Shown: piece by piece, positions 36,714 through 64,000 of the stretch
Layout: each line of letters begins with the position of its first letter
Numbering within the stretch: position 1 is the first letter of the stretch
Assembly (NCBI GenBank): GCA_964016885.1
Contig: OZ024740.1
Span: 373,240,001-373,304,000 of the forward strand
Length of the DNA stretch: 64,000 nt
Reading direction: 5' to 3'
Origin: Eledone cirrhosa
Taxonomy: Eukaryota
The notes under the pieces: model-generated
Database searches by the model: none
Seen by the model: only the letters and a program-made list of their open reading frames with translations
What the model was told of the DNA's origin: nothing
Position numbers and translations under genes: made by a program

Positions 36714-36726
36714 CATATATATATTT

Positions 36727-37434
36727 TATAAAAAATAAACCAAAGAAGCCTTCAATACATCAAAAGTCTTTATTAGCCAACAATGTTTCGTCCTATTAAG
36801 GACTCATCCGGGCAAGTAAAGCTACAAGAAGCACTATCGGCCAATACAAGCCAGAAACTCAGAAGAATATGGAGTATACATCTATTAAAGCCTAGGAAGG
36901 ATATTAAGGAAAAGTTGGCTAAGATTAAGAGTGATCAGTTACATACATAGATATGGACCAAATAGCAAGGAAGTGATTAACATGTTGAACCCACACTGCA
37001 AATATTGTATAATGCAACAACTTGAAACACAAATGGTAATATAATGCGAGTATAATATAATATAATAGACGGTGATAATAAAAAGCTTAATATATGTATA
37101 TATATACATATGTATATATATACTGCTCACTCTTAATCTTAGACAACTTTTCCTTGATACCTTTCCTAAGCTTTAATAGATGTATACTCCATATTCTTCT
37201 GAGTGTTTGGCTTGTAACGGCCGATAGTGCTTCTTGTAGCTTTACTTGCCCTGATGAGTCCTTAATAGGACGAAACATTGTTGGCTAATAAAGACTTTTG
37301 ATGTATAGAAGGCTTCTTTGGTTTATCTTTTATAATTCTTCGGCTCTGTTTAATTACATAGAGCTATATCCTATACTGTCATTTCTATAATATGAAGAGG
37401 GTGTTTAACTCCAACACACTGTAGTATTTTAATT

Positions 37435-37438: not shown

Positions 37439-37502
<64 letters not shown>

Positions 37503-37506
<4 letters not shown>

Positions 37507-38955
37507 TTTACATATATATATACATACACATACATATACGTGTTTTGCAACTGGTCACTTTGTGGCTCAATGAAAAAATAATAAATTAAACAATCAGAGC
37601 TATATATCCTAAAACATGTCTATAGAATCACAAGATAAAATATAAACTATTTCCTCTCCCAATTAGCATAATTAACTATATAAGAAATCGAATTGACCAG
37701 GCTATACGAATGAGGCTTCTATGAAGGAATCTCCGACAAATAACCGAAAGTAGCGCTTCGCGTCGGCCGTAGCGGAATATTTATCGAATATTTCGACAGC
37801 TTAATCGCCTAGATATAATCAACTAAACAGAATTAGGTTTAAAATAAACTAGGAGAAAATAGAATACATTTAAATACCTCTAACATGGTTTCGTCCGTGT
37901 TTTGAGTTTTCAAATAATTATGTAATAATTATATAAACTCGAGCGCCGGATTCTTCAGGAAGCTCGCTCATATCTAGACATTAAATTTTCCAAAACGATC
38001 GCGACAAGAATTCATTTCAAAATGATAGAGGTATTTAAATGTATTCTATTTTCTCCTAGTTTATTTTAAACCTAATCCTGTTTAGCTGACTATATCGAGG
38101 CGATTACGCTGTCGAAATATTCAATAAATATTCCGCTACGGCCGACGCGAAGCGCTACTTTCGGTTATTTGTCGGAAATTCCTTCATAGAAGCCTCATTC
38201 GTATAGCCTGGTCTATTCGATTTCTTATATAGTTAATTATGCTAATTGGGAGAGGAAATAGTTTATATTTTATCTTGTGATTCTATAGACATGTTCTATG
38301 ATATATAGCTCTGATTGTTTAATTTATTATTTTTTCATTGAGCCACGAAGTGACCAGTGGCAAAACACATATATGTATGTATATATATATGTAAACTTTT
38401 ATATGTAATAATCTCCCACTAAATTGAGATACACATTTGGCTGTATTGTGCTGTGCTTTCTAGCAAAAATGCCACCAGTCGTAAGCAACTACCACACCCC
38501 TTCCAACTTGACCGCGACTACGTCACGATTTTTAGCCATTTTGAAATGAATTCTTGGCGCGATCGTTTTGGAAAATTTAATGTCTAGATATGAGCGAGCT
38601 TCCTGAAGAATCCGGCGCTCGAGTCTATATAATTATTACATCATTATTGGAAAACTCAAAACACGGACGAAACCATGGTAGAGGTATTTAAATGTATTCT
38701 ATTTTCTCCTAGTTTATTTTAAACCTAATTCTGTTTAGTTGATTATATCTAGGCGATTACGCTGTCGAAATATTCGACAAATATTCCGCTACGGCCGACG
38801 CGAAGCGCTACTTTCTGTTATTTGTCGGACATTCCTTCATAGAAGGCTCATTCGTATAGCCTGGTCTATTCGATTTCTTATATAGTTAATTATGCTAATT
38901 GGGAGAGGAAATAGTTTATATTTTATCTTGTGATTCTATAGACATGTTTTATGAT
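37503..38955. mobile_element. Retrozyme-like element, 653-nt non-coding monomer; inverted arm 37503-38025, sense arm 38026-38955 (about 1.4 monomers)
   Basis: gaggtatttaaatg recurs at 38028 and 38681; one HHR per monomer; (TA)n flanks. Confidence 0.8.
38599..38684 (+). ncRNA. Type I hammerhead, extended stem II, palindromic stem III (inverted copy 37877-37962)
   Basis: CUUC-CUGAAGA-AUCCG...CGGAC-GAAA CCAUGG UA-GAGG. Confidence 0.85.
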
Positions 38956-38978
38956 ATATATATATATATATATATATA

Positions 38979-40008
38979 CAATATTAAATAAATGGAAAAC
39001 TATATTTATAAAACCATATCTATTTCATTATATATATTTCGGGGATATCATATTAACAATATGCTATGCCTTCATCAGACAAAATACAATATAAACAGTT
39101 TTATAGATAAATATATTCGACATACCGTAATAAACATCGACTTCATTTGAAGAGGTTTACGCTAGCAGTGAAAATACAGAGAGAAAGAAAGAGAGAAAAA
39201 AAGGGAGAAAAAAGAAAGAAAGACAACACGAAGAAAAGGAAGAAAAAGAAGAAAAAGAAAAAGAAGAAATGCATGGAACAAAATAGAGAGATGGAAAAAT
39301 AGATAAAGCGAAGAGCTTCATGTAAAGAAACAGAAAGAGATATATATATAGAGAGAGAGAGGAAATAGAGATAGATACATAAATATATATAGAAAATTAG
39401 GTAGTGGGAGGTCATTTTGAGTAAGTGTATCAATGATACATTTATTTATTTATTTATTCATTTATTTATTTATTTAGCTCAAGTATTAATGTAAGGGAGA
39501 TATATATAGAGAGAAAAAAAATTTAAAAATAGCCAGACATATTCGAGGCGTAGAAAACCCTATGTTATAATGTATTAGTATTTATAAAACTTACACTATA
39601 TTGTAAATATCAGTATTCCTGAATGAAACAAGTATCCATAATGTGTGAAAATTCATTATCTTATGTTTAGTTTTAAAAAAATCATTTTTTTTCTCTTTTT
39701 TTCTCTCTCTCTTTCTCTCTGTATTTTCACTGCTAGCGTAAACCTCTTCAAATAAAGTCGATGTTTATTACGGTATGTCGAATATATTTATCTATAAAAC
39801 TGTTTATATTGTATTTTGTCTGATGAAGGCATAGCATATTGTTAATATGATATCCCCGAAATATATATAATGAAATAGATATGGTTTTATAAATATAGTT
39901 TTCCATTTATTTAATATTGTAAATATACTCCAAATATTTGTCGAGTGCTTTTATATCAGTTATAAATATTTACTAGTTGTAACCCAACAATTTTAAATAT
40001 AACTTTAC
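38979..40008. mobile_element. PLE pLTR inverted-repeat insertion
   Basis: 38979-39190 is the reverse complement of 39710-39921; about 85-nt tail; HHR in both arms. Confidence 0.85.
39812..39877 (+). ncRNA. Type I hammerhead (inverted copy 39021-39086)
   Basis: UAUUUUGU-CUGAUGA-AGG..CAUAUU guu AAUAUG..CCC-GAAA UAUAUA UA-AUGAAAUA. Confidence 0.75.
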
Positions 40009-40024
40009 ATGTATATATATATAT

Positions 40025-40110
<86 letters not shown>

Positions 40111-40115
<5 letters not shown>

Positions 40116-40542
40116 TAAACGGAATATAAAATGCTGACAAATTGTTCACAGTTGAAAAATGGTTTAATTAGGAATAAAAGAGTATTAGTGATTGTATGGG
40201 TTAGTATTCAGTTGTGGTTTTAAGTTTTTAAGTTGTTACCGGTTGCGCATTTCTAAATGCTTTTCAAAAATAATTTTGCGATAGAGTGTCCGTGCTGTTT
40301 GCTCTGATCAGAGCAAACAGCACGGACACTCTATCGCAAAATTATTTTTGAAAAGCATTTAGAAATGCGCAACCGGTAACAACTTAAAAACTTAAAACCA
40401 CAACTGAATACTAACCCATACAATCACTAATACTCTTTTATTCCTAATTAAACCATTTTTCAACTGTGAACAATTTGTCAGCATTTTCTATTCCGTTTAC
40501 CAATATATAATAACTTGTGTGTTACACCTCTATTCTTTTAAC
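40111..40542. mobile_element. PLE family F: near-perfect about 390-bp spacerless palindrome plus 35-nt tail
   Basis: Centre CTGATCAG at 40304-40311; one mismatch seen between the arms. Confidence 0.92.
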
Positions 40543-40571
40543 TATATATATAAATATATATATATATATAT

Positions 40572-41225: not shown

Positions 41226-41237
41226 TATATATATATA

Positions 41238-41445
41238 AGAACGAGTAGGACCCCGACGGCTGAGCTCAAGCCGTTTCGAAGGCTAATTCTGGACTAAATG
41301 AAAATGTTAATCCTGGTATATGAATAGCCGAGCTTCTCAGGGGGTAATTCCATATATGGTAAAAGTGATTGTCACAAGGATTGGTCAAAAGTTTGTTGTT
41401 GAGACACATAATTCTATCATGGCAATTTGTGGAAGGAAGGGGTAA
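41238..41445 (-). mobile_element. PLE family C 3'-end fragment with HHR (41251-41344)
   Basis: Matches 53642-53790. Confidence 0.85.
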
Positions 41446-41662: not shown

Positions 41663-42060
41663 AATAATATACGATATGTTTACGAATGAACATTTGAAAG
41701 CCTTGAAATTTAAAGTATAGATTTAAAGATGGCTCGGCAGCACCTGGCGAGTTCCAGAAGATGAAAGGGAGGTTACCGACCGCTGTTTCTGACTTATGTA
41801 TTTGTTATCAATGCGATGCGCATTTGTACCTCGCTTGCGGCTGGGATTCTATATAGATGCAAACATATTTTAACGCTTCTCTATATGGGCTGTTTAGCCT
41901 AATTTGCATACGGAGCTGATGTGAGGCTCGGCCTGAACAAAAAATAGAATTAAGCTGATCGCTTCAGCATAGCTGTTTATTCGTAAACACGTATATAATT
42001 ATATATACCAAACTTATATACTTATATATATATATACAGCCATGTTGGAGTGAACACCTC

Positions 42061-42128
<68 letters not shown>

Positions 42129-42136
42129 CTCTTTCG

Positions 42137-42220
<84 letters not shown>

Positions 42221-45052
42221 CGTATTGGCAGAAGGAAGGGTGGAACTGCCATTTTCCAACATGATTTATTTCCAGCAGATGGTAAAACAACATTCTCCAA
42301 TGGCTACTGTGAATCAGTCACTGTGCACAATAAAGCCAATGACCTGATATTAGTTGGGCTCTATAGGCCACCACAAACACCCATATTCTGCTTCAAAGAA
42401 TGCCTCAACAGTATTAAATGCTTTATTAAACAGTGCCATTTTAGCAATATACTCATGATGGGAGATTTTAATCTACCCTGTGTCGATTGGTCTACAAGCA
42501 ATTTTAAAGCAGGCACCCCAACCATAACCACTGACAAAGAAGCAGTCGAGTCACTTCTTGACTTCATGAATGAGTGTTTCTTGTCCTAACTTGTATTTGC
42601 AACAACAAGGCACCAGAAGAACATTCTGGATCTAGTGTTTAGTAACCACACTAATACTATACATTACAGTGGAAAAAAAACCCCTTATCTCAGACCCTGA
42701 CCTGGTTCTTTGTAACCTGAGATTCCACCAGCCGAAAGCTAATCCTAGGGACCTCTTTCCAGCCCACCCGTTTGATAACATGGATCTCTACAATACCAAC
42801 TGGGATGCAATTATGAACGAACTATCACATGTTGACTGGTCTTTTACACAGGCACACACTTCCACCGACATCAAAACATCTTGGCAGATCTTTGTAGACA
42901 CTGTCACAAATATATGTACAAAACACACCCCACCAAAACCTGTGAACAAAACTAAGTGCAGTATCCCCCAAAACAGAAAACCCAATTACCAGAAAAATAA
43001 GAAAACAGAAAAATTAACACACTAAAATACTGCGAACAGCAACACACGCATTTGACGGCTATCGCCCTGCTTGAACCAACAAAATATAACCTCGAACAAT
43101 GCATGTAGACCATCATCACTAACCAGAGAACAGCTGAAGAGAGGTGTGCCATTGAGAAAATCAAACTCAACTCCAAAGTGTTCTTTTTTATTTGCTTAAA
43201 AAACACAAGGTCACGGTCTCCACTGTTGGCCCTCTAGTTGATGAAAATGGCACACTCCAAGATGATGCCAAAACCATGGGCGAGATACTGCAGAAACAAT
43301 ACTGCTCTGTTTTCAGCAATCCTGATATGGCCGATCTGGCCTGTATAAGTGATGTTAATGCAACACACTACATCGGACATAACTTTTGGCGCCTCTGATG
43401 TCTCAGCGGCAATAAACGAAATTAAACGCAATTCAGCAGTAGGCCCCGACCTGTTCCCTGCTTGTGTCCTGAAGGTGTGTCGACACCAACTTGCATCTCC
43501 TCTTGCTAATCTGTGGAGGAACTCACTGGATACTGGTTATATTCCTGAGGACTTTCTGTCCCAATCCGTTGGCCCAGTCTTCAAAAAGGGAAATAAGTCC
43601 CTTGCAGTGAACTACTGTCCGATCTCACTCACCTCTCATATTATCAAGGTATTTGAAAGGGTGGTGATATCATGAGTAACCCACTTTCTTGAAAGCAACG
43701 GCCTGCTGAACTCCAACCAACAGTGGTTCCGTAATGGAAGTGATTGCCTAACGCAGCTGCTACATCACTTTGACAATGTTTTGAGAGCCTTTGGATTGGG
43801 GTCCAAATCTGATGTCATGTACCTTGATTTCAGCAAGGCCTTTGACAGGATTGATTATAAGATTCAACTGAAACAACTATCAAATATTGGTGTCTCTGGA
43901 AAATTACTACAGTGGATCAAATGTTTCCTGACCGACAGAACCCAGCATGTAGTCGAAGGAATAAAATCAAGCCCTGCCAAAGTTAGCAGTGGCGTCCCAC
44001 AAGGCACTGTGATGGGCCCACTTCGTTTCATCATCTACAATAATGTTATTACTGACATCATCAAGCACATCAACATAATAATCTTCGCACATCATTCCAA
44101 GCTCCAAAGGGTCATCAATGAGGTGGGTACCGGATTGCCTTCACTCAGACCTACTGACTGTTATCCAATGGGCAGAAAACAATAATATGTTGTTGAATGA
44201 GGACAAGTTTGAATTAATCCACTTTGGAAAAAAGGATGCCCTGAAACTACCATACTCTCTGCCTTAGGGTGAAACTCTAGTGGCATCCAACAACATCAGA
44301 GACCTGGGAGTAATTGTGGACAACAACATAAGCTGGGCCACTCATATAAACAAGAAAGTTGACATGGCCAGCAGAAAGTGTTCCTGATTTCTCAGAACCT
44401 TCCAGTCGATAGATATCGCTACTGTTATTCTTCTCTTCTCCACTTTTGCCGACCCCACCTTGAATACTGTTGTCAAGTGTTGTCTGCCCACAGGAAACAA
44501 AGTATCATGAAAGTTGAAGCACCCCAAAAATCGATTACAAAAATGATAAATGGCATGACAGCCCTTGACTATTGGACTCGATTAGAAAATCTCAACATTT
44601 ATTCTCTCCAAAGTCGCCGTGAGCGCTACATTATCTACATGATGTAAACAAATATTCCATCAGCTTTGCCCAGATGATGTTGGCATCACCTTTAATGTAC
44701 ACCCAAGGCTTGGGCCCGGTGCTATCCGCCCACAACATAAATCTCACTCGCATCTCATAACAACAATACGGCATAATTATTTCACCTCAATTGGCTCTGC
44801 TCTCTTTAACATTACACCAAAACACATCAAAACAGAAACAGACCCCATAGAGTTCAAGAAGTCTTTGGACAATCCTTCAACAAATCCCGGATAAGCCTCC
44901 TACACCCGGATATGCCTACATAAACAATAACTCTCTGCTCGAGTGGGCGATGTTGCCCAAACCCTGATTTGTAAGACTTCATCGGGTGTTGCTATTAAGT
45001 TAGACATGGCCTGGGCCAATACTGGCCGAAACCTATCAAAGTTATCAAAGTT
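42221..45052 (+). mobile_element. CR1-clade LINE ORF2 pseudogene (APE endonuclease + RT) with 3' UTR
   Basis: GLYRPP, MGDFNLP, ILDLVFSN, PVFKKG..NYCPISLTS, YLDFSKAFD, SGVPQGTVMGP, RPHLEYC; tail tatcaaagttatcaaagtta. Confidence 0.95.
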
Positions 45053-45680: not shown

Positions 45681-48600
45681 GCTGTTGTCTCGTTTGTTTA
45701 CACCAACCAACTCGTCTCGGATCGGTTATTTATTAGTGCTCCTAGGCGTTTGATCCAAAGTGCTTCATTGATTCGTAACGTTCCGACGTTGCGTTATGTC
45801 GCTAGCACTGTGACAATAGGCCTTCCGTCTTTGTTTCCGCATTTGGTTATGTGTTTCCGGAAAGACGAGGCCCTGGCGTTGATGTACTCCTTGATCGGGA
45901 TATCTAGTGGCCGGATTATGCTACCGATATAGTAATGGTTGCACTTGTCACATTATACCCTGTATACAACGTATGTGCGTAAGCACCAGTTCGTTTGGCG
46001 CATCGGACAGTTTCTGAGGGAACACGCGTCAGACGATTTCTCGGGTTTCTTGAGACAGGAATTGTTTGCATCTATAAGGGAACTCTTTAGACTGTCGGAG
46101 AAATGGGCGAATGTTGGCTGTCAAATTATTTTCCTAAAACGCTGCCTAAAAAACGATCTCATCAGGAACATCCGCTTACCAGGATGTCTACGTACACCAA
46201 CTTTTCAAAACAGCGCTAGCCGCATACACCACTCGTGTATCAAACAGATCCTGCGAAATCTTAACCGCCAGTTACACATCCAGAGCGGACACACCGATTA
46301 ACACTAACACCCGGTGACTTGCTCCTTAAAATCACAAAATAAATCGACCTGTGCTACCACTCCAGAGTCCAACACGAACATAAAACGACTCAAGCGGAAA
46401 TCTGAGTGGATCTTGCTTAAACTCCACAGCGAAAACACCGACACTAACAAACAGACAGACCAGAACCACGTGATAAACAGCAACATAACAACCGTCACCG
46501 CCACACCCACAAACACCGAGCCACAGCTCAACGATGCGGCCCACCTGCACACCGACCTAACCGGCACTCTCACGAACGACGAGCTGGAACTCATACGCCT
46601 CGGACCCAAGTACATCATCTCACAGCGGCTCGACAACAGACTTAAACTCGACATCGAAGTCAACTTCTGCCGAGCCGCCTACCAACTTAAATGAGTGACT
46701 TCCATCAACATCACCACGGAAAATAACAGCACCCACACAAGCCACTCCAACTTCCCCACTTACCACCTCGACAACCCACTCCACCCCCCACTCACCAGCC
46801 ACGAACTCGACACGAAACTCATCAGATTAGAACACTCCATCTCTGATATCCTACACAAACACACACACACGCACAACACACAACCTTACTAAATCTCAAC
46901 TCACCACTCTCTCCAACCCGAAATCGAGGAACCTCATCTACCTCCCCTCCGACAAGAGAAAATAATTCTGCGTCATCAGCAGAGAGGCCTACACCACCCT
47001 AGCTCTCCAACACCTTAACGATGACAACCTCTACTCCAAGGTCACAGGAATCACTCCCACGCAGATCGAGGAGCACATCAACGACGCCTGGACAAACATC
47101 TGTGATCGGCGGAAGCTTCCGAAGAAGCTCAGATACAACGACCATACGAGGAAGAGCAGACTACCCGCCTTCTACCACCTTGTGAAAACACACAAACCCG
47201 AACTGAGGATCAGACCTATTGTATCGAGCGTGGAAGGACTGCTCTACAGAATGTCATTGCTCCTAGCAAGAATACTTATACCCATACTAGACACCTTGCC
47301 GGGACACGTAAACAGCTCCGAATTGTTGGAGCACCTGCATCAAATGGATCCCGACACCAGAAACGCTAACAGGTATGCCTTCAGCCTTGATGTGGTCGCT
47401 CTTTACACCTTGGTCCCGGCGCTCACGGCCGTTGATATACTGATGGAATGCGTTCAATTTACCGACCTACACTGCTTCGGGCTCACCCCCACTGACATCC
47501 ACCAGCTCCTATCCGTCGTCGTTGACAACACGCATTTCGGTTTTCTCGACCAAACATACCGGCAAACCTCGGGCTTCCCATGGGCTAAAGCCTGTCGGGT
47601 GTGCTAGAGTTCTCTTACATGGACGGCCTCGAGCGCAATACACTCAACACCTCCCACCCCAACACCGTCGCCTTCTTCTTAAGGTACGTGGACGACATCC
47701 TCATCCTCACATCTTCCCAGGAGATGGTGAGCGGAATTTATGAGATGTTCAACAACACGGACGAGAATATTGATTTCAGTGTTGAACACCCCAACGACGA
47801 CGGTTCCCTTGCCATCCCCGACTTCCGAATCAACATCACGGAGCAGGGAGGTTATCCCCACCAACTTCTACCGCAAGACAGCCTGCAGAGACTACAAGTC
47901 TGCCATCCCTAACAGTGCTAGAAGAGGGTACATCACGAACGAGATCACGCGAATTAAAAACAGATGTAGCGATCCCGTGAGTAGTGTCACCCATACCAAG
48001 CGCTTTTTCAGGGTGCTGCAGACGAACGGATACCAAGCCTCGCTTACGAACAAAGTAAGGGACACCAGGCGCAAGAGGCAGAGAAACACCCAAGGCAAGT
48101 GTTTCCTTTAAATCCCGCACCTGGGCGATAAAACCACCAACGCTATCCCCAGGACTATACGGAGAGAGGGCATCGACATCCACCTGGCCCACTCGGGCCG
48201 CTCCCTACAGAGATGCTTCTCCAGGAAGCCCGGGAAATCGTCTGACGCGTGTTCCCTCAGAAAATGTCCGATGCGCCATAGGAACTGTTGCTTACGCACA
48301 TACGTTGTATACAGGGTAGAATGTGACAAGTGCAACCACTACGATATCGCTAGCACAATCCGACTGCTACATATCTGGATCAAGGTGCACATCAACACTA
48401 GGGCCTCGTCTTTCCGGAAACCCATAACCAAATGCGTAAGCAAAGACGGAAGGCCCATTGTCACAATGCTAGAGACAGAACGCAATGTCGGCACGTTACG
48501 AATCAAGGAAGCACTTTGGATGAAACGCCTAGGACCAGAAATAAATAACCGATCCGAGAGAAGCAAGACGAGGTGGCTGGTGTAAACAACTGAGACAACA

Positions 48601-49365: not shown

Positions 49366-50117
49366 TATATTATTATATATATTATTATGTTAAATTGTTA
49401 ATTAGCCCTATTTTCTGGACGATGATAATGATAAAAACAATAATTATTAGCAAGGTGGAGGGAGAGTATATATACTGTCAACGCACAGTTGTAGCTCTGT
49501 TTGATAAGCTAAGATGTGAACCTATCTACAACCTCATTATCTGAATAGATTAGTGATAAATTCAGCTTGTCTCTGATTAGAAAATGAATACAATTTATGA
49601 GTAATTATAAATACCTCAAACTATGCTGTTAATTTTGAATTAGCTGGATGTATTCTATATACTGTAGGTAGACATAAAATGCTAACGTGATTGTGATTAA
49701 CAGCTAATTGCAGTACCATTGATTAAAATAGATATGTGATATCTGATACAACAATGTTTACTAAAATAGCTTTTCTATCAATTGAAACTGTACACATTCT
49801 AGAAAGCAATGTCCTTCCTTAAATTATTTGAATGCAAATTCAATGAGGAAATATATATACGTACAATCTCACCAAATCAATCTCAACAACGTTTGGCCCA
49901 GGAAATTTGAAACTATATGAATGCTATAAATTTAATTTTGTTTAATTAAAAGAAATAAATCAATCGACTATAATTAAATATGTAATACAATTGAAATTAC
50001 AATAATTCTCGGACATTAAATTAAACGCCTAATATTCAAGAAATAATCAAAACGGACTAAGACGTTGAATATAAATATGTTTATGTAAGATCACTAATAA
50101 ATATATATATATATATA

Positions 50118-51557
50118 TTTAAAGGAATAGAGGTGTAACACACAAGTTATGATATATTGGTAAACGGAAAAGAAAATGCTGACAATTTGTTCACAGTGAA
50201 AAATAGTTGAATTAGGAATAAGTGAGAATTAGTAATCGTATTGGTTAGTATTCAGTTTTGGTTTTAAGTTTTACCGGTTGCGCATTTCTAATGCTTTTCA
50301 AAAATAATTTTGAGATAGAGCGTCCGTGATGTTTGCTCTAATCTGATTAGTTTTGGAAATTATACCTGTTTTGATGTTAACAAAGTTGCTCCAGCGGTAT
50401 TAAAATAAATTTTGCGCCAATTCGTGTTGCACAAATTCTTGTGGTCAAAACAATTTTGATTGGTCGGTAGAGGTCATGTGAATTTTAAAAATTGATTTTG
50501 CGCCAAATGTAGGTTTGTGTCGGCTGATTGCGAAGCCACTGAAAAATAAGTCTTTCAAAACAAAAATATGTGTGTGTGTGTGTGTGTAGTAGTAGTAATG
50601 AGGTTCGTTGTTGTGATAATGGTCAACAGGGATGTGTGTGCGAACCGCAACCTGTTGACAGTTCAAGTGCCTATTAAGACAAGTGTATGTGTGTATGTGT
50701 GTGTGTGTAGCAGAGTAATTCGTGGTAGAGGGATGGTCAGTAGGAATGTGTCTGTAAGTGTGTGGGGGATATTTTAACATGTTAAAATATATTTCTCAGC
50801 CCTTGTCTTATACGGAGAAGTGTGTGTGTGTGTGTGTGTGTCTCTTTGTATGTTAATGTACGCGTGTGTATGTGTGTATGTGTATATGTGCGTGTGTGCG
50901 CATACACGTGTGTGTGTGTGAGAATGTGTGTGTGTGTGTGGGCGGACCAGTAATTATTTTTGTGATACTGGTGAAATGGTGTTCATTATTCGATATTTTC
51001 AGTAAAATCGATTCTCTCAATAGAACATCAAAAACTTTAATAATAAAAGGTGTGAAATGATATATAGTATTGGCATAATACCAAGGTGTGTGTGAGTGTG
51101 TCCATATTGTACGTATTGCAAGGGGAATCCATTAGGCCTTGCCGTATTGGAATACTTGTGTACAAATATGTATGTGCTCATCAGTGTGCAATGCATGTGT
51201 GCGTTTATGTATGTGTGTGTGTCGGCACGTTTATATCTATAGACATCAAATGGTATGCACATTTGTGTATATTTGTGTTGCACCATAGAACATGTGTGTT
51301 TACGTATGTCATTGTGTTTATATGTGGGTAGAGATGTATGCTGATGTAGGTATGTATGTTGACGTGTGTATGTTGTGGGTTCGTCTTAGGGAGAAGTGTT
51401 TAGACGGGGTCCGTATTTGTTATTTCACCAGTATCACAAAAAATAATTACTGGTCCGCCCACACACACACACACATTCTCACACACACACGTGTATGCGC
51501 ACACACGCACATATATACACACAAACATACACACGCGTACATTAACATACAAAGAAA

Positions 51558-51598
<41 letters not shown>

Positions 51599-52257
51599 CT
51601 CCGTATAAGACAAGGGCTGAAAAATATCTTTCAACATGTTAGAATATCCCCCACACACTTACAGACACATTCCTACTGACCATCCCTCTACCACGAATTA
51701 CTCTGCTACACACACACACACACACACACACACTTGTCTTAATAGGCATTTGAACTGTCAACAGGCTGCGGTTCGCACACACATCCCTGCTGACCATTAT
51801 CCCAACAACGACCCTCAATACTACTACTACTACTACACACACACACACACATATTTGTTTTGAAAAACTTATTTTTCAGTGACTTCTCAATCAGCCAACA
51901 CAAACATACATTTGGCGCATAATCAATTTTTAACATTCACATGACCTCTACCGACCAATCAAAATTGTTTTGACCACAATAATTTTTGCAACACGAATTG
52001 GCGCAAAACTTATTTTAATACCGCTGGAGCCACTTTTTTAACATATAAACAGGTAGAATTTCCAAAACTAATCAGATTAGAGCAAACATCACGGACGCTC
52101 TATCTCAAAATTATTTTTGAAAAGCATTAGAAATGCGCAACCGGTAAAGCTTAAAACAAAAACTGAATAATAACCAATACTATTACTAATTCTCACTTAT
52201 TCCTAATTAAACTATTTTTCACTGTGAAAAAATTGTCAGTATTTTCTTTTCCGTTTA

Positions 52258-52262
<5 letters not shown>
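50118..52262. mobile_element. PLE family F inverted-repeat insertion; long arm (minus sense, with tail) 50118-51422, short arm 51423-52262
   Basis: Arms are reverse complements; the long arm reaches the last GIY-YIG codons (NKYGPRLNTSP*). Confidence 0.9.
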
Positions 52263-52330
<68 letters not shown>

Positions 52331-53600: not shown

Positions 53601-53641
<41 letters not shown>

Positions 53642-53645
<4 letters not shown>

Positions 53646-55864
53646 AACCAGTAAGACCCCGACAGCTGAGCTCAAGCCGTTTCGACGACTAATTCTGGAC
53701 TAAATGAAAATTTGTCCTGGTATTTAAATAGCCGATCTTCTCAAGGGGTAATTCCATATATGGTCAAAGTGATTGTCAAAAATCAGTAGTAATTCTGTGG
53801 TTGCAAATTAGTTGGGGAGATGGTGGCTAAACCTGCCAGTAGGAGAAAGAGGGGAGGGGGTGGAGTAGACCCAATCAAGCGTTGGTAGTGCCAGCTACAG
53901 CTGGGCATGAGGTCAAAGAAGATACAGGGGAGGGGGAGGAAGTCGGAACGGTAGGTAGAACAATGGGGGGTAGAAATATATAGGAAAGAAAAAATACTGA
54001 GAGTGGAGAAAAGCAAATAAGTGTAAAGAAAAAAGTAAAGTAAATTCTACGACCTAGGTCTCTAGCTATTGTTAGGCTAGAATAAATAAATAAATAAAGA
54101 AAGAAAGAAGTAAAGAAAGAAATAAAGAAATAACGAAATAAGTAAAAGAACTAGGTGGGACGGATAGGCAAGGACCCTTTTAAGAGGTATAAGTACGTAA
54201 ATGATACGGTGACGGGTCAACAAAAGGGACCAAAATACTAAAGAGACTACCACGAAATAAACAATAAAGGTTTCCATCCCGGGCACAATGCCAGCAATCA
54301 CCCAGTGCAGCAAAGTGAACTAGTATGAGATAATAATTCTGAGTCCCGAGAAAAATATATACTAATGCTAACTCTAAAAGATCTAAAACAAGCTACATGA
54401 AAGTTCGTACGAAGTAAAGGTAGAATACGGAAAAATAAATTCAGAATCCACCCCGCCCAAAAGAAAAGCGAAGAAAGAAATACTGAAACGAAAAAATAAG
54501 GCATAAGTGCCACTAAGAAATATAGAGGGCACAGAGAATAGTGGGAGCGGTCGGAAAAAGGGGACAAGTATCCGGGATCTAAACCAACTGCTATAAAGGG
54601 CGGAGTCCGCCAAATCTATCATAGACTAGGGGAGGGGGTGGGGGTACTAAGGCTACAAGGGGCCAAAGGGCAGCCTCGGGTGGGCGAGAAAAGACGCCGA
54701 CAAAGGAGAAGAGCTGGGGTAGAAGGACTAAGGAGAGAGGGGGGAAGGAAATAAAGGAAGCGATAAAAGAATACAAAGAAGATCTTACGTCTCCCTTGGC
54801 AAGCAGGGGTTACCCATTGCAAAATCGGCAAGTGGGGTGTTATAGCCCTAGTCTACCCCCCCCCCCCCCCCGGGTCATTATGGGGTTTGAGGGCGAGGTA
54901 AGTCCTACGCAATCCATGTTTACATGCAGTAACCAGTTCATCTTTCTTGTTTAGGAGTTGGTCCGTCGAAAACAGCATTTGTAAAGTTTCCTCCGAGCAT
55001 AAATTGCACGGACGGCGTCCTCCCGTGTAAGAATTGGCTCTGGACAGTAATCTCCAAGTGATGTAATCACGTGACAGTAATCTCCAAGTGATCATAGGTG
55101 ATGTTGTTGTCCTTGAGGTCCCATATGTGGCCCGAAAGTGTAGTGGCGTGACGCCGGGCCGGGTTTCGGAAGGTATGTCTATGTTGGTATAGCCGGGTCT
55201 TGAAGTCACATGCGGTAAGTCCTATATAGGCTTTGTTGGAGGTATCCGTCCTCACGTTGCACTGGTAGATCACATTACGGTCTCTGCATCTATTGTCGAG
55301 TGGGCAAATGGATCTATCCGGGCAGTTACACCTCCTGGTCGGTTCTCCACTGCTATTTAGGTTATTTCTGCCATCGGGGTTGAGTTTTTTGTTGTTAGAG
55401 GAGACGATGTTTTGTGCGAAGTTTGGTGTAGTGCTGTAAGAGAGTTTGATGGTATTTTTGTTAATTATGTTGTGGTAGCGGTGTTGTAATGGGAAGTGTT
55501 TTTCAATGAGCCTAAAGAATAGTTTCCCGATGGGAGTTGTCACCTCTGCGTTGTGGGGAGGATTGAACCATGTTACATTGCGTGAGCGGCGGTGTCTCCT
55601 GCTGGTTCCGCTAATGGGAGCTGGACAGTAGGATATTTCCTCCCGGAAACCACTCCGCTTGAGGGCCTGGTTGTAATAAGGCGCATGTTCATCGAATATC
55701 CGCTCATTAGCTGACAAACGGGATATGCGGAGAATTAGCCGTCGAAACGGCTTGAGCTCAGCTGTCGGGGTCTTACTGGTTCCTATTACCCACTCTACTA
55801 CCTCAAGTAGTGAGTACTTTGGTGCGTTATGGTCCACCTGGTTCCTTACCACATTTCCTTCGTT
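53642..55864 (-). mobile_element. 5'-truncated Naiad-like PLE (family C) with short inverted pLTR + tail at 55731-55864
   Basis: RISRLSANE..YNQALKRSGF, RNVTWFNPP, NKNTIKLSYS, CNC..CPLDNRC..VIYQC..YIGLT..FKTRL, CNLCSEE, CKH; ORF remnant 54853-55730. Confidence 0.93.
53657..53748 (-). ncRNA. Type I hammerhead with U3-A8 core, long stem II and full palindromic stem III
   Basis: CCCC-UUGAGAA-GAUCGGCUA...UAGUCGUC-GAAA CGGCUUGAGCUCAGCUG UC-GGGG. Confidence 0.75.
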
Positions 55865-55916
<52 letters not shown>

Positions 55917-57159
55917 ATACTATTTTAAATACTGTGTCAAATGACAACAATCATTCTTCCACTATGGCTGTGATCCTAGGTCAAGTTTCGGTTTTTGTGG
56001 GTAATCATATATCCGTACTGCAAGAAATACGCTCTTAATATCAGCTAAATTCACCATCATGCACTGGGCCTGCACTCGTATTTTATCATTCAAAAAACTT
56101 CAAAACACTGCGTGTTATTGTAAGAAGTTTTCAATTGACTCTGCCGTTACGTCTCCTTATATTTGAGATTTCTCTACTATAAAAAACCTTAGGAGTTTAA
56201 TGGATTGAAAACTTCGAAGCTGATATTCCTCGTTCAAGCCATGCATCAAATCCTGTCGTGTCGTTAGATTTTAAAACTGGGTTCTATAATTATACTACTT
56301 TGGAGACTGAATATCTTTAAATGTGGGGAATAATTTATATTCTTTAGGGGATTCTGTGTTGTGACTCATCATGAAGTTAGATACTCAGAATTGGATTCAG
56401 TTGTGAAAGCGATAAAGAGACGACATAAACCTGAAGATGAGAGCTGCAACGAGAAATATATGCAGTCCCTGTCCATTTAAATCTGAAATGAATAGTTCTA
56501 ATGTTCGAGATGAATGATGAAAGGAATCCGGGTGATGATATGTGGTTTGGTAGTTAATTGAAGTTGGCTAGTCACTTGTCAAATATTAATCAATAAAGAG
56601 GAAGTTACACATGCGAGAATATGACATGCTGAGTTTATAAATTAGTGGCCGGATAAAATTAAATAATTTGATACCCCACAACATATGAAAGAGACGGATT
56701 GGTTCACGTAATATTATTATCATAGATTAATTAATGATTCTTCTCAGCTTGTGAAGAAATATAATTTTCAGTCACTATACAACATTTCATTTGTTATTGC
56801 TAATGCTTCTTTTTCGCATAGATAATAGAATTTGGTTAAGTCATGATTGCATTCCGAGTTAATAGATATATGGAGCTCTTTGAAATATGAACAATTCTAT
56901 AAGCATAGGTCTGTGTATAACAGATGGAATTCATGTATATAATATATTAATTAGATTAACACCCCACGAGTAGTAAAAGGAAAGATAAAAACACGTTGCG
57001 TTTTGAAGAATATACTATTGATACACCAGTATATTCAAAATGGAAGATTAGAATACTGTATTTATGCCACAAGAAAATTTTAATATTTACTTTCTGTCAT
57101 TCACACAACAAAACCTGACGTAAGGAATTTTACTGACATGTAATTCCTCGATATATATA

Positions 57160-57284: not shown

Positions 57285-57440
57285 AGTATAGGTTTCAGCG
57301 AGAATCGCATTTCGGCGTCTAGGAAAGGTGAAAGGAAACGCAAAAATCAGAAATGACACTGGCAAAGTGCTCAATAGTTAAAAAACAGAGCTAAACAATA
57401 TGTTAAGAAGCCATACAGAACTGATAAATATATATACACA

Positions 57441-57505
<65 letters not shown>

Positions 57506-57511
<6 letters not shown>

Positions 57512-58803
57512 ATAAATGCTCTGAAATAGCGATATATATGTGAATATAGACATAGAATATTCGAAAATATTCTGTATGTTTATAATAAACATTTTGAAGA
57601 CCTAATCGCTATAGAATAGAATACGTCACGTATTACAATTAGATTCTCGATAAAAGCAAGGGAAGTAAATCTACGCGTTTCATTCTTATTAGAAATCGTC
57701 AGGACTACATATCCAGTGCTTTCATCGAGAATGACACAGCTAGAGACTTATAGAATACTTAGCTGTGTACAGGAACTGGTTTGAAAGAGCGGTTGCCGGT
57801 CCGGCAGAAATTAGAAATTGGAATAAATGCTCTGAAATAGCGATATATATGTGAATATAGACATAGAATATTCGAAAATATTCTGTATGTTTATAATAAA
57901 CATTTTGAAGACCTAATCGCTATAGAATAGAATACGTCACGTATTACAATTAGATTCTCGATAAAAGCAAGGGAAGTAAATCTACGCGTTTCATTCTTAT
58001 TAGAAATCGTCAGGACTACATATCCAGTGCTTTCATCGAGAATGACACAGCTAGAGACTTATAGAATACTTAGCTGTGTACAGGAACTGGTTTGAAAGAG
58101 CGGTTGCCGGTCCGGCAGAAATTAGAAATTGGAATAAATGCTCTGAAATAGCGATATATATGTGAATATAGACATAGAATATTCGAAAATATTCTGTATG
58201 TTTATAATAAACATTTTGAAGACCTAATCGCTATAGAATAGAATACGTCACGTATTACAATTAGATTCTCGATAAAAGCAAGGGAAGTAAATCTACGCGT
58301 TTCATTCTTATTAGAAATCGTCAGGACTACATATCCAGTGCTTTCATCGAGAATGACACAGATTTACTTCCCTTGCTTTTATCGAGAATCTAATTGTAAT
58401 ACGTGACGTATTCTATTCTATAGCGATTAGGTCTTCAAAATGTTTATTATAAACATACAGAATATTTTCGAATATTCTATGTCTATATTCACATATATAT
58501 CGCTATTTCAGAGCATTTATTCCAATTTCTAATTTCTGCCGGACCGGCAACCGCTCTTTCAAACCAGTTCCTGTACACAGCTAAGTATTCTATAAGTCTC
58601 TAGCTGTGTCATTCTCGATGAAAGCACTGGATATGTAGTCCTGACGATTTCTAATAAGAATGAAACGCGTAGATTTACTTCCCTTGCTTTTATCGAGAAT
58701 CTAATTGTAATACGTGACGTATTCTATTCTATAGCGATTAGGTCTTCAAAATGTTTATTATAAACATACAGAATATTTTCGAATATTCTATGTCTATATT
58801 CAC
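57506..58803. mobile_element. Retrozyme-like element, 311-nt non-coding monomer; 2.75 copies minus-sense (57506-58360) joined to about 1.4 copies plus-sense (58361-58803)
   Basis: ttggaataaatgc at 57507, 57818 and 58129 (period 311); copies appear identical; one HHR per monomer; (TA)n flanks. Confidence 0.9.
58637..58675 (+). ncRNA. Type I hammerhead of the 311-nt monomer (minus copies 57668-57706, 57979-58017, 58290-58328)
   Basis: AGUC-CUGACGA-UUUCU aaua AGAAU-GAAA CGCG UA-GAUU; predicted cleavage after 58671. Confidence 0.9.
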
Positions 58804-58917
58804 ATATATATATATATATTTGTGTGTGTGTGTATGTGTGTGTGTGAGTGTATATTTATGTTGCACTTACACGCAGGCGCAGGCGCTAGGACACACATAT
58901 ACACGCACATATATATG

Positions 58918-59103
58918 AAGGAGTCAGGACCCCGACAGTTGAACTCTTGTCGTTACAAAAGCTAGTTCAGAAATATCTTGTTAAAACAGAAGTTCAGCCG
59001 TGTTGGTCCCGGCTCCTTCATATACCACGCTCTACTACCTCACGCATCGTGTAGTCTGGTGAGTAATGGTCCAACATGTTTTTACTGCATCCATTCTGAT
59101 TGA
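58918..59103. mobile_element. Diverged family-C-related mini inverted-repeat insertion
   Basis: aaggagtcaggacc and ggtcccggctcctt arms; tail ctctactacctca...atggtccaac resembles family C. Confidence 0.6.
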
Positions 59104-59115
59104 TGTATATATATT

Positions 59116-59149
<34 letters not shown>

Positions 59150-59358: not shown

Positions 59359-59360
<2 letters not shown>
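59150..59360 (-). mobile_element. PLE pLTR fragment (family of 11662-11843) with HHR at 59290-59327
   Basis: CCUU-UUGAAAA-GCAG aagaa CUGC-GAAA ACGG UA-AAGG. Confidence 0.8.
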
Positions 59361-59436
<76 letters not shown>

Positions 59437-59439
<3 letters not shown>

Positions 59440-59916
59440 TAAACGGAATAGAAAATGCTGACAAATTGTTCACAGTTGAAAAATGGTTTAATTAGGAATA
59501 AAAGAGTATTAGTGATTGTATGGGTTAGTATTCAGGTGTGGTATTAAGTTTTTAAGTTTTTACCGGTTGCGCATTTCTAAATGCTTTTCAAAAATAATTT
59601 TGAGATAGAGTGTCCGTGCTGTTTGCTCTGATCAGATTAGTTTTGGGAATTCTACCTGTTTTTATGTTAAAAAAGTGGCTCCAGCGTTATTTTTGTGTTG
59701 CAAAAATGCTTGTGGTCAAAACAAGTTTGATTGGTCGGTAGAGGTCTTGTGAATGTAAAAAGTTGATTTTGCGCCAAGACTGTTTTTATGTTAAAATGTT
59801 AAAAAAGTGGCTCCAGCAAAAATTATTGGTCAAAACAATTTTGATTGGTCGGTAGAGGTCATGTGGATAAAAAATTGGTTTTGCGCCAAGATTGAGAAAT
59901 GACTCTTTCACAACAA

Positions 59917-59985
<69 letters not shown>

Positions 59986-60067
59986 TGTGTGTGTGTAGTA
60001 GTAGTAGTAAGGTGTTCGATGCTGCGACAATGGCCAGCAGCGATGTGTGTCAAATGGCTATTACGAT

Positions 60068-60141
<74 letters not shown>

Positions 60142-61956
60142 ATATATATATAGTAGAGTCATTCGAAGGTCAAAAGATATTTTTCAACTTTTGTCTTATA
60201 CGGAGAAGTGCGTTTGTGTGTGTGTGTGTGTATAAGTCTCTTTGTATGTTGATGTACGCGTGTGTATGTGTTTGTGTATATATGTGTGTGTGCGTGTGTG
60301 GGTGGACCAGTATTTTTTTCCCCCTGGTAAAATGGTGTACATTATTCGATTTTTTCAGTAAAATCGGTTCTCTTAATAGAACATCAAAAATCTTAACAAT
60401 AAAAGGTGTGAAATGATATTCACTATATATATATACACACATACACACATTCACTACATATATATATATATATACATATATGGTGGCTGCCAACTCGTTT
60501 TCGAGTACGGCCACTACTTTATATCCATGTAGGAAAACCCCTACCGATGCGCGGAACGAGTGTGACTTTTTAGTCCAGCCAGTGACTTGAAAACTCTGGT
60601 ACAAACACTACACTTGTGACAATTAATGACACTTAGTGCTGGGCCTTTGGTATCATGTGACGACAAGTGCAGGGAGATCTCCAGATATAAAGCAATGCCT
60701 GTGCCGTGAAGCTTTTATAGTGAGCAAAGGCACTGCACAAATCCAGTCCCACTCTCTTAACCAAGATGATATTTACCAAAAAGAAGAACAAGTCAACATC
60801 ATTGGATACCATCAGAGTTGCAGGTGTTATATCAGAGTTTTCCTTCTCCTAGAATTCTGCCTTGACAAAGGCTATGGGGTCATCTCTCCCATATACATAT
60901 ATACATACATATATATGCACATATATTTTTTTGTATTGCACCATAGATCATGTGTGTTTACGTGTGTCATTGTGTTTATATGTGGGTAGAGATGTGTGCT
61001 GATGTAGGTATGTATGATGACGTGTGTATGTTGTGGGTTCGTCTTAGGGAGAAGTGTTTAGACGAGGTCCGTATTTGTTAATGAAGTAAGATTCCTTGCT
61101 GATGCGCTGGGTGTGGGTGGCATTATCTTTAAATTTGTAGAGAGGAAAGATTCTGAAGTTGGGATGATTTTGGCGGGAATAGAGGAAAATACCACTGAGT
61201 GAACACATTGATACCTGTGCCGCCCAAAATCATCCCAACTTCAGAATCTTTCCCCTCTACAAATTTAAAGATAATGCCACCCACACCCAGCGCATCAGCA
61301 AGGAATCTTACTTCATTAACAAATACGGACCCCGTCTAAACACTTCTCCCTAAGACGAACCCACAACATACACACGTCAACATACATACCTACATCAGCA
61401 CACATCTCTACCCACATATAAACACAATGACACACGTAAACACACATGCTCTATGGTGCAATACAAAAAGATATATGTGCATATATATGTTTGTATATAT
61501 ATATATATGTAGTGAATGTGTGTATGTGTGTATATATATATAGTGAATATCATTTCACACCTTTTATTGTTAAGATTTTTGATGTTCTATTAAGAGAACC
61601 GATTTTACTGAAAAAATCGAATACTGTACACCATTTTACCAGGGGGAAAAAAATGCTGGTCCACCCACACACACACACACATACACACACACATATATAC
61701 ACAAACACATACACACGCGTACATCAACATACAAAGAGACTTATACACACACACACACACACACACACGCACTTCTCCGTATAAGACAAAAGCTGAAAAA
61801 TATCTTTTGACCTTCGAATGACTCTGCTATATATACACACACACACACACACACATACACACACACTTATCTTAATAGCCATTTGACACACATCGCTGCT
61901 GGCCATTGTCGCAGCATCGAACACCTTACTACTACTACTACTAAACACACACACAC

Positions 61957-62032
<76 letters not shown>

Positions 62033-62560
62033 ACACACACATATTTGTTGTGAAAGAGTCATTTCTCAATCTTGGCGCAAAACCAATTTTTTATCCACAT
62101 GACATCTACCGACCAATCAAAATTGTTTTGACCAATAATTTTTGCTGGAGCCACTTTTTTAACATTTTAACATAAAAACGGTCTTGGCGCAAAATCAACT
62201 TTTTACATTCACATGACCTCTACCGACCAATCAAAATTGTTTTGACCACAAGCATTTTTGCAACACAAAAATAACGCTGGAGCCACTTTTTTAACATAAA
62301 AACAGGTAGAATTCCCAAAACTAATCAGATCAGAGCAAACAGCACGGACACTCTATCTCAAAATTATTTTTGAAAAGCATTCAGAAATGCGCAACCGGTG
62401 AAAACTTAAAAACTTAAAACCACAACTGAATACTAACCCATACAATCACTAATACTCTTTTATTCCTAATTAAACCATTTTTCAACTGTGAACAATTTGT
62501 CAGCATTTTCTATTCCGTTTCCCAATATATAATAACTTGTGTGTTACACCTCTATTCTTT

Positions 62561-62564
<4 letters not shown>
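59437..62564. mobile_element. PLE family F inverted-repeat insertion, about 1.3-kb arms, junction near 61178
   Basis: Right arm begins with GIY-YIG C-terminus RKIPLSEHIDTCAAQNHPNFRIFPLYKF...RISKESYFINKYGPRLN*; the tail is on the right arm only. Confidence 0.92.
60481..60890. mobile_element. Unclassified about 410-bp secondary insertion in the left arm of 59437-62564
   Basis: Absent from the mirrored position (about 61490-61510); sits in an internal (TA)n tract. Confidence 0.7.
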
Positions 62565-62622
<58 letters not shown>

Positions 62623-62627
62623 TACAT

Positions 62628-64000
62628 GGGTGTGTATGATTGTGAATAGAATATTATATTAATAAAAGGAATTCCAACTTTGTCTGATTTACTCGTTTTA
62701 TTTACAATCCTTTAAAATTTTTAAAAATTCATAATGGTATTAGAATGAAATAGTATGGCAGAATATTAAATGTTAAGTGTTAATTGAACAAGTACTTTCA
62801 TGCTTTCGCAATCTTCAGGTTCATAATGTGTGGTGACAGTCAAGTTTTCAATTTTAAACTGTAATGAGATGGGTAAATTTTGTGCCGTATATACGGTGAA
62901 AAGAGGGTCCAGAATGCTAAATCTTGCAAACTGTATTTCGACCAATCGCTCTGTAGTTACACTGGATTACTAAAGCTGATTGGTTTAGGCGTCACGGTTG
63001 GTTGAGCATATCTAACGACTACTCATTGATCCTATCCAAAGCATCAATTGTTTTGCTATTTTTAGAAATGATGAAAATAGAATTTTCTAGTAATCATCAC
63101 TATCAACATCACTTTTTTATTATTATTATTGTTGTTGTTGTTGTTAGTGGTTGTAGTCGGAATGGTCGTAGTCATAGTCATAGTAGGAGTAATGACCCAT
63201 TATTATTGTTCATTTAGCTTGGGTTTGAATTTATCAATAACATTCTTTTCTTTGATTTTTCTCTTGATTTCACTTGGGCTGTGTAATTTGTATAATGGGA
63301 TTATTATAAATATTCCCTCCCCACATGTTGATAGATGGTTACTTAGGGGTATCTGACGGACATTTGCTGTCGGTATACCCGTGCACGTTCCGATAGTGCA
63401 TTTCCTGTTTGACCGACATATAGTTCTTCACAATTCGGGCATTTAATGCAGTAAACTAGATTTCTGCTTTTGCAGTTCATATTTGTATTTGGGAATATTT
63501 TTCCAGTTTTTGTTTTCATATATTGACCGGCGTGTATGGATTGACATGTGCCACATCGACTATCATTGCATTTAGATACAGTGAATGATTGGTCTTTGTT
63601 GTTAAGGTCAAACGTTGCTTTTGTTAGTAATTGCTTCAAATTTTTCGGCTGTCTTTTACTAAGAGTCAAAGATCGATCTGTGATTAAGTCTTTTAATTCA
63701 TTACTTTAAGCAATGATCGGTACGTTTGCTTTAGCAGTGTTGAAGATATTCTGGTGACATGGGTTGTGTGTCATTATAAATGGTATGACCAGTTCTTGGT
63801 TTCTTCTTCCTTGGGTTGTCCTAAGTTGTTGTATAGGTATTTTCATAGCCCGCTGTATGGCATTTTCTATAAGTAGATATGGGTATTTTTGTTTGAGCAA
63901 ACATTCTCTTAGTTCTGTTATGCGTTTGTACCTCGTATTCGTATCTTCTACAATGGTACAGATTCTTCTGGCTAGGCAGTATGGGATGTTGCGTTTTGTA
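62628..64000 (-). mobile_element. Neptune-like PLE 3' part (RT thumb, linker, GIY-YIG, 3' UTR), cut by the window edge
   Basis: NIPYCLARRICTIV, IPFIMTHNP, KRQPKNLK, KCNDSRCGTC, MNCKSRNLVYCIKCPNCEELYVGQT, FKPKLN; ORF ends near 63200. Confidence 0.93.
62785..62823 (-). ncRNA. Minimal type I hammerhead
   Basis: UGAAC-CUGAAGA-UUGC gaaa GCAU-GAAA GUAC UU-GUUCA. Confidence 0.85.

Follow-up and report, generated by a model that had tools for sequence, protein, structure and literature searches.

The 311-nt stretch at 58361-58671 of the window (the whole 64,000-nt stretch of DNA that was analysed) ends in a hammerhead-like motif and has a branched predicted fold, which raises the question of whether it represents a viroid-like RNA or a genomic element, and of what its fold may serve. 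A sequence-only reading had proposed a viroid-like fold selected for a compact, branched RNA with juxtaposed ends for ligation. Viroid hammerheads occur in both polarities. As read from the sequence, the stretch appears to be one unit of an animal non-LTR retrozyme rather than a viroid, agreeing with that class on every feature that gave a clear result. The locus is probably a young copy of a multicopy family of such retrozymes, inserted by the protein of a Penelope-like element (PLE) acting in trans.

With its many microsatellites and broken transposon frames, the window has the look of a repeat-rich animal chromosome, and the 311-nt stretch is one unit within an insertion of 1306 nt at 57506-58811 (Table 1). 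The insertion consists of two head-to-head arms, both identical to the 311-nt monomer. The left arm contains unit positions 245-311, then two full units and then positions 1-166; it terminates inside the left (TA)n at 57506 with a 2-nt overlap, and its 5′ start lies at unit position 244-245. The right arm, with one intact hammerhead junction only, starts within 1 nt of the predicted ribozyme cleavage site. The 3′ ends of both arms, at unit positions 133-140 and 165-166, run into (TA)n with an offset of about 26 nt (24-33 nt allowing for microhomology). Both insertion ends are thus inside (TA)n, where a target duplication is not readable, and no LTR is apparent in the layout. The unit is non-coding (longest ATG-led frame on the circle, 30 aa) and has a GC content of 34.4%.

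Table 1. Features of the retrozyme locus (positions in the window)
Feature	Position	Strand	Remark
(TA)n tract	57424..57507	no strand	TRF row; putative left side of the insertion target
Left arm	57506..58360	-	855 nt, 2.75 units; monomer-identical; three intact hammerhead junctions
Type I hammerhead, left arm third copy	57661..57714	-	core at 57702; extent by register with the plus-strand copy
Type I hammerhead, left arm second copy	57972..58025	-	core at 58013
Type I hammerhead, left arm first copy	58283..58336	-	core at 58324
Arm junction, head-to-head	58360..58361		2-nt microhomology
Right arm	58361..58811	+	451 nt, 1.45 units; a complete unit followed by positions 1-140
311-nt unit	58361..58671	+	numbering from the cleavage site
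Clamp 5′ strand	58374..58389	+	extends hammerhead stem I
Insertion-end zone	58493..58531	+	unit positions 133-171; putative reverse-transcription start zone and PLE-type tail
Clamp 3′ strand	58611..58626	+	58620 is G here (G-U pair)
Type I hammerhead	58629..58682	+	read from the sequence against the type I consensus
(AT)n tract	58804..58819	no strand	right flank of the target; 8-nt match at its start to unit positions 133-140

The junctions between units were read with the type I hammerhead consensus as a yardstick. All four contain the core, the three stems and the GUA triplet, as judged by pattern and inspection. In the plus-strand copy, stem I is formed by 58629-58640 with 58672-58682, the core CUGACGA lies at 58641-58647, stem II has 4 bp over a U-U pair with the loop AAUA, GAAA lies at 58662-58665, and stem III is a single A-U pair around a palindromic CGCG; the predicted cut falls after GUA, between 58671 and 58672. 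No CUGANGA core was found in the antisense circle, so the ribozyme is on one strand only. Rfam gave no match in the window at the gathering score and none up to E 10 on 58400-58811, and a stricter hammerhead scan missed the unit's ribozyme because of its 1-bp stem III and the U-U base of stem II. Taken alone, the hammerhead folds no better than shuffles (z 0.26), as expected because its core is unpaired.

The type I consensus is described in PMC4209133, according to which a 1-bp stem III hinders cleavage by a single motif and a neighbouring copy rescues it. Dimer-dependent ribozymes of the axolotl have the same build as that of the unit: HHR_Amex1 shows a 1-bp stem III with a palindromic tetraloop, and HHR_Amex2 a U-U base of stem II (PMC7229834). 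By analogy, the 1-bp stem III and palindromic loop of the unit should make a second copy necessary. A consensus match does not prove activity, since only one of nine predicted Xenopus retrozyme dimers is reported to have cleaved in vitro (10.64898/2026.07.22.740005). The hammerhead-core pattern was also found at three loci in JGI metagenome contigs and one in IMG/VR, all unrelated to the unit outside the core (best E 0.06). These hammerhead-like cores lie at L001:68-105, L002:435-474, L003:2001-2034 and L004:1001-1035, the first two inside long inverted repeats. A 30-nt pattern from the unit body had no match in GTDB genomes.

The pairings proposed from the sequence were largely borne out. The 16-bp clamp, with one G-U pair (58380/58620), is present, 58398-403/58407-412, 58420-427/58499-506 and 58459-466/58471-478 are fully paired, and the remaining motif pairs (tgttta/taaaca, tgccgg/ccggca and acacagcta/tagctgtgt) are at the places given for them. 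Two of these needed qualification: the hairpin at 58537-58549 (tgccgg/ccggca) exists but has at most five of the six pairs claimed, since its arms are 1 nt apart, and the tgttta/taaaca motifs form only a weak helix (probability 0.42, missing from the MFE structure). Pair probabilities in the circular ensemble are 0.95 for the clamp, 0.98 for 58575-83/58601-09, 0.93 for the 58537 hairpin, 0.89 for the 58398 and 58459 hairpins and 0.57 for the 58420/58499 helix.

The circle folds better than its dinucleotide shuffles (-66.4 kcal/mol, z -3.5, none of 200 as good). The same holds for the linear form (MFE -70.6 kcal/mol, z -4.06, none of 100 as good), and a 16-bp helix occurred in none of 1000 mononucleotide shuffles of the unit, the longest being 14 bp. 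The opposite strand scores equally (z -3.99 linear, -4.7 circular), so the fold score does not tell which strand is the working one. The clamp accounts for much of the signal: the unit body without clamp and ribozyme reaches a z of only -2.37, with two of 200 shuffles as good. Within the window, z was -3.5 or lower in 5 of 60 sampled microsatellite-free tiles (155 such tiles in all), MFE was -70.6 kcal/mol or lower in 8 of 62 GC-matched tiles, and a helix of at least 16 bp was present in 5 of 155 tiles. The fold therefore beats shuffles, yet it is not unusual for a genome whose window is rich in fold-backs. With 59-60% of positions paired and -0.21 kcal/mol per nt at 34% GC, it is a real, branched and moderate fold, ordinary for the retrozyme class. 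The idea of a branched, end-clamped fold adjoining hammerhead stem I was thus right, and similar folds are described for animal retrozyme circles in PMC7229834.

The view that the clamp juxtaposes the ends for ligation was incomplete, because clamp self-closure of each unit is also the geometry of a double hammerhead. One of the active sites in a double hammerhead draws its stem I from both ends of one unit, and the clamp is thus an extension of that site. In nearest-neighbour energies, which omit tertiary contacts, a double hammerhead in a natural 418-nt two-junction stretch of the left arm costs 5.4 kcal/mol relative to the free ensemble, compared with 22.0 kcal/mol for two single ones; one double-type site costs 3.6 kcal/mol and one single site 11.2 kcal/mol. 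Forcing the clamp open raises the double costs from 5.4 and 3.6 to 10.4 and 7.2 kcal/mol, whereas opening two body helices as a control leaves them at 5.5 and 3.7 kcal/mol. A single active fold in the circle costs 10.8 kcal/mol, which would protect the circle from cleavage. The model thus suggests that the clamp favours the double hammerhead and may serve cleavage as much as ligation. Counting against it, the clamp forms in the free ensemble with probability 0.41 within a unit versus 0.53-0.55 across junctions, and the palindromes pair with a probability of only 0.07. Clamp closure would also hold the cut ends close for a ligase; RtcB is reported to give circles with more than 80% (axolotl) and about 30% (mussel), compared with 3% and 1% for self-ligation (PMC7229834).

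Copies of the unit in sequencing runs were followed in detail in four runs, namely X1, X19 and X20 (three of 20 positive runs) and X24. In X1, whose identity with the organism of the window is not proven, 663 contigs were found, 290 of them at ≥99% identity, 159 at 95-99%, 87 at 90-95% and 127 below 90%; their summed contig depths of 100,000-650,000 are not read as copy number. The tandem joint was present in X1, X19 and X20. Loose ends in X1 lie behind 58500 (10 contigs, running into an AT repeat), behind 58515 (14 contigs, with a short further stretch and then AT-rich letters, agreement 0.67) and behind 58531 (one contig, running into a TA repeat), next to 48 further loose ends. These ends correspond to unit positions 140, about 155-171 and 171, with 31 nt between 58500 and 58531. 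The X1 organism thus contains a large, dispersed, multicopy family with a defined end zone and several different flanks. The locus's own inverted junction was absent among the joints listed for X1. Among eight X1 records listed, older diverged contigs (about 80-86% alike) match mainly unit positions 70-197 (window 58430-58557), which include the end zone, and may come from a related family of PLEs or retrozymes with the same 3′ signal.

Nine substitutions were seen among the copies, six at unpaired positions, two pair-keeping and one breaking stem I (58639 in X20, depth 3.6). In X1, the changes fall into loop II and core position 7 or leave pairing intact; one variant there carries an additional A within the core. 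Eight of the nine substitutions fit the fold, and no more than one break is expected by chance with P = 0.17; no two-sided compensatory change was seen among the copies in the examined runs. The substitution data are thus consistent with the fold and do not prove the selection that had been proposed for it. At 58620, 98% of X1 depth, as well as X19 and X20, has A instead, giving an A-U pair and a fully Watson-Crick clamp. As we read the tables, the listed joints of X1, X19 and X20 skip one of three U near the unit start, which removes a stem I bulge; one X1 variant keeps all three.

At the locus itself, all four copies of unit position 260 (58620) are G, a letter that makes up at most 2% of X1 depth. 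Because they share this rare G, both arms can be traced to one template lineage, and the array appears to have arrived ready-made. Growth in place from a single unit could equally give the shared G, but would not give two ends in the tail zone.

The layout bears the marks of a PLE insertion: an inverted truncated arm, a tail, (TA)n on both sides and a head-to-head join. Partial tandems, an adjacent inverted 5′-truncated copy, a 30-40-bp tail and microsatellite targets are described for PLEs in PMC8557442; the tail of about 26 nt seen here is at the short end of this range, which counts against the assignment. Purified PLE protein is reported to cut and extend both strands at AT-rich DNA and to begin reverse transcription at two sites inside the RNA, which set the limits of the tail (PMC11167929). 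The spacing from ribozyme to end (133-171 nt) in the unit matches the 166 nt of a Neptune-type remnant in the same window, one of two other hammerhead-bearing elements there that end in (TA)n, the second doing so 155 nt past its cut site. No likeness was found between the unit and the PLE 3′ ends of the window (score 20 versus 19.8 ± 2.8 in 500 shuffles). Because of this, the kind of helper is read from the anatomy only and is left without a family assignment. Twin priming of the L1 type was also considered: head-to-head arms fit it, but there is no poly(A) tail, and the 3′ ends cluster in one zone, which fits a two-strand PLE reaction better. A literature search on twin priming and Penelope yielded no relevant paper.

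Mobilisation of retrozymes by PLEs has been proposed from shared ribozymes and co-occurrence (PMC7229834) and again in PMC7761336, and a frog phylogeny has been used to argue for it, with local amplification as an alternative (10.64898/2026.07.22.740005). In the main texts of the open-access literature reached by our searches, we found no description of an inverted-arm and tail footprint on a retrozyme; the word "inverted" has no use in the preprint of the 2020 retrozyme paper and one, in a reference, in 10.64898/2026.07.22.740005.

Several PLE-like remnants share the window with the locus. A broken 3′ part of a Neptune/Nematis-type PLE at 62625-64000 (minus strand) has in-frame stops, a frameshift and CX4CxxC before a GIY-YIG-like motif. 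It contains a small type I hammerhead at about 62783-62826 with a U-U at the base of stem II, a palindromic GUAC loop and a 1-bp stem III, and ends in (TA)n 166 nt past the predicted cut. A further type I hammerhead, canonical in appearance and with a stem III of greater length, lies at 37236-37300 (plus strand), ending in (TA)n at 37437, and an inverted copy of it with one core base changed lies inside 36726-36955. Broken RT/GIY-YIG (PLE-like) frames are present at 19628-21384 (-), 25202-26345 (+), 46304-48585 (+) and 54853-55924 (-), and the frame 55067-55861 resembles GIY-YIG/HTH_animal clusters by Atlas features. At E 0.001, Pfam matched one of nine transposon fragments, with an RT unrelated to the element; at E 0.1, five of seven gave weak matches, all below the curated cut-off (GIY-YIG, E 0.0087 for 63346-63702). 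Because the Pfam matches are weak, the identity of the window PLEs rests also on motif inspection and the Atlas features of 55067-55861.

Long inverted-repeat insertions occur at 10209-10839, 36474-36585, 37495-38960, 40045-40571, 60891-61506 and near 3588-3898; the ones found by self-comparison have an arm identity of 85-97%. Some are flanked by (TA)n, their folding z goes down to -32, and they resemble additional PLE-type insertions. Short repeats that are related to each other and stop at (TA)n, possibly PLE 3′ ends, lie at 59017-59144 (just right of the retrozyme), 55734-55902, 53632-53781, 41229-41377, 34569-34688, 24330-24486 and 11526-11645. A dispersed family of 250-1200 nt adjoins (TA)n, often as inverted pairs (59360-60481, 61483-62635; further copies at 23899-24160, 40008-40571, 50069-50977 and 51422-52328), and 58914-59025 has short inverted ends. 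The window also contains a broken endonuclease-RT LINE at 41999-44185 (+) (RVT_1, E 5e-13), a frame at 28988-29533 (+) without a Pfam match, which we take to be a Tigger-type transposase, and an 84-nt-period CAC-rich array and a 227-nt duplication at 12256-12731 and 16421-16878.

How the copy might have arisen can be outlined as follows. The locus contains identical, non-coding 311-nt units in tandem, each with the type I hammerhead consensus. In a multimeric transcript, the 16-bp clamp and stem I would fold each unit back on itself, so that neighbouring junctions would meet at their palindromic stem III loops and form a double hammerhead cutting after GUA. For a lone unit the active fold would cost about 11 kcal/mol, which should leave it largely protected. 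By analogy with other species, a host RtcB-type ligase could then circularise the released units, whose ends would lie close together. The anatomy further suggests that the GIY-YIG/RT protein of an endonuclease-bearing PLE would nick both strands of (TA)n and that reverse transcription would begin from each nick at internal positions, 133-171 nt past the cleavage site. The template may have been a circle or a partly cut multimer, copied for more than one unit. Two cDNAs would then join at their far ends to give the head-to-head insertion with a short tail, one of them having stopped at the ribozyme site. A right-arm start at the cut site would occur by chance in about 1-2% (estimated from three registers in 311 and one or two arms), and is taken to mean that the template was linear and cut, or that copying stopped at the ligation junction.

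The same family could also move without any circle, the template being a linear, partly self-cut multimeric transcript from a donor array, the unit in effect a free-standing PLE pseudo-LTR, and the fold serving ribozyme dimerisation and protein binding instead of ligation. The plus arm does begin at the cleavage site, as when a reverse transcriptase runs off a cut 5′ end, and the left arm spans three uncut junctions; moreover, unprocessed RNA is described as the main in vitro substrate of PLE protein (PMC11167929), and closed contigs such as those of X19 and X20 are equally expected from tandem DNA. However, exact unit-length repeats with a rare variant are most simply traced to an earlier circle, and the retrozymes of coral, mussel and axolotl are reported to accumulate as circles (PMC7229834); a purely linear route is considered the less likely of the two.

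Beyond X1, the unit was met widely: 20 of the 24 runs listed contained between 63 and 96% of 27 sampled unit words, and they carry 18 organism labels and come from 17 studies of 2020-2025. No RNA run was listed among the positive ones, which says nothing either way. Animal non-LTR retrozymes are described as tandem 150-450-bp units that are species-specific and lack an LTR, a primer-binding site and a polypurine tract, with a target duplication of more than 4 bp when present (PMC7229834). The locus agrees in its tandem units of this size, each with a type I hammerhead, its non-coding sequence with GC below 50%, and its dispersed, multicopy nature; as for species-specificity, near-identical sequence occurs under the 18 labels, and X19 and X20 look like traces. 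Each of these two runs has a single flankless, unit-length contig (310-311 nt; depth 17.1 and 3.58), and three of the substitutions found in the two runs are at zero depth in X1. The simplest and most likely reading is trace carry-over of a very abundant repeat, across samples or from diet or environment.

The breadth of labels, set against the described species-specificity (PMC7229834), and the flankless contigs with their private substitutions could also point to a viroid-like circular RNA outside the chromosome, one that passes between many animal species and has occasionally been integrated by Penelope-like enzymes in just one host genome. We consider this highly improbable, since X19 and X20 contribute one contig each at low depth against 663 contigs in X1, contigs of this type are what trace amounts of a high-copy tandem repeat collapse to, the minus polarity is without a ribozyme, and five positive runs are guessed to be DNA. 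An 81% share of words in six labels would also be expected from the family's common form against the rare variants of this locus. Recent horizontal transfer of the retrozyme into many genomes is hardly credible either: near-identity under 18 labels agrees with it, and horizontal transfer has been invoked for PLEs (10.64898/2026.07.22.740005, PMC8557442), but X19 and X20 show neither flanks nor copy diversity. In X24 (label F), none of 12.8 million raw reads fell on the unit, although its sample differs from that of the positive run X8, so that this is no fair test, and three of the 20 positive runs were examined. Scarcely more plausible is a satellite-type array grown in place from one PLE end by unequal crossover or slippage, or an assembly fold-back, with the fold incidental: local amplification has been proposed (10.64898/2026.07.22.740005) and the folding is not exceptional for the window, but the arms differ in phase, length and flank, both ends lie in the tail zone and (TA)n, X1 has several independent ends, and the 16-bp clamp adjoins stem I beyond chance.

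Compared with known systems, the unit shares with animal non-LTR retrozymes (PMC7229834; 10.64898/2026.07.22.740005) its size, single hammerhead, GC content, lack of coding capacity and self-paired fold, and the locus resembles them in co-occurring with PLEs. Different from described retrozymes, it represents a new sequence family as far as searched (the supplement of the 2020 paper may list relatives), and its copy here shows an inverted arm, a tail and a microsatellite target. With endonuclease-bearing PLEs (Neptune, Poseidon and Naiad; PMC8557442, PMC4209133, PMC11167929), it has in common the partial tandems, the inverted truncated copy, the tail, the AT-rich or microsatellite target and a type I hammerhead shortly upstream of the 3′ end. 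The locus thus carries the tandem and inverted truncated copies, the tail and the target of an autonomous PLE, but the unit lacks any frame for a reverse transcriptase or a GIY-YIG endonuclease, and its sequence is unlike the PLE ends of the window. It appears to work like a PLE passenger, not an autonomous PLE.

Size, branched fold, hammerhead and double-hammerhead control (the last as cited in PMC4209133) are shared with Avsunviroidae and viroid-like RNAs. Different from these, the unit has a many-copy chromosomal DNA form, inserted among transposon remnants, whereas viroids are described as having no DNA form (PMC11210808), and its ribozyme is in one polarity only, whereas hammerheads of Avsunviroidae are reported in both (PMC8781251). 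The viroid state as given in PMC7229834 involves a complementary strand blocking the ribozyme, and the unit is without one; nor is there evidence of RNA-to-RNA replication of the unit. "Viroid-like" therefore holds only as a likeness, the unit being a multicopy repeat of the chromosome whose ribozyme lies on a single strand. That the unit turns up under many organism labels is of interest only if contamination is excluded; the extrachromosomal reading, if true, would provide an extant bridge from genomic retrozymes to infectious circular RNAs.

For the preferred reading, that of a retrozyme copy inserted by a PLE protein, the copy itself is probably a poor donor, because a read-through transcript of the whole locus gives long double-stranded RNA (a 452-bp hairpin between the inverted arms on folding); the copy at 57506-58811 is more likely to act as a silencing trigger than as a donor. 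This reading predicts that reverse transcription starts at unit positions 133-171, that cleavage needs two junctions and the clamp, and that arrays arrive ready-made. That one arm begins at the cut site hints at cleavage in vivo or at a stop at that site; for the anole PLE, no read ends of this kind are reported (PMC11167929). A young, unmutated locus with a PLE footprint makes the question of which enzyme moves animal retrozymes testable.
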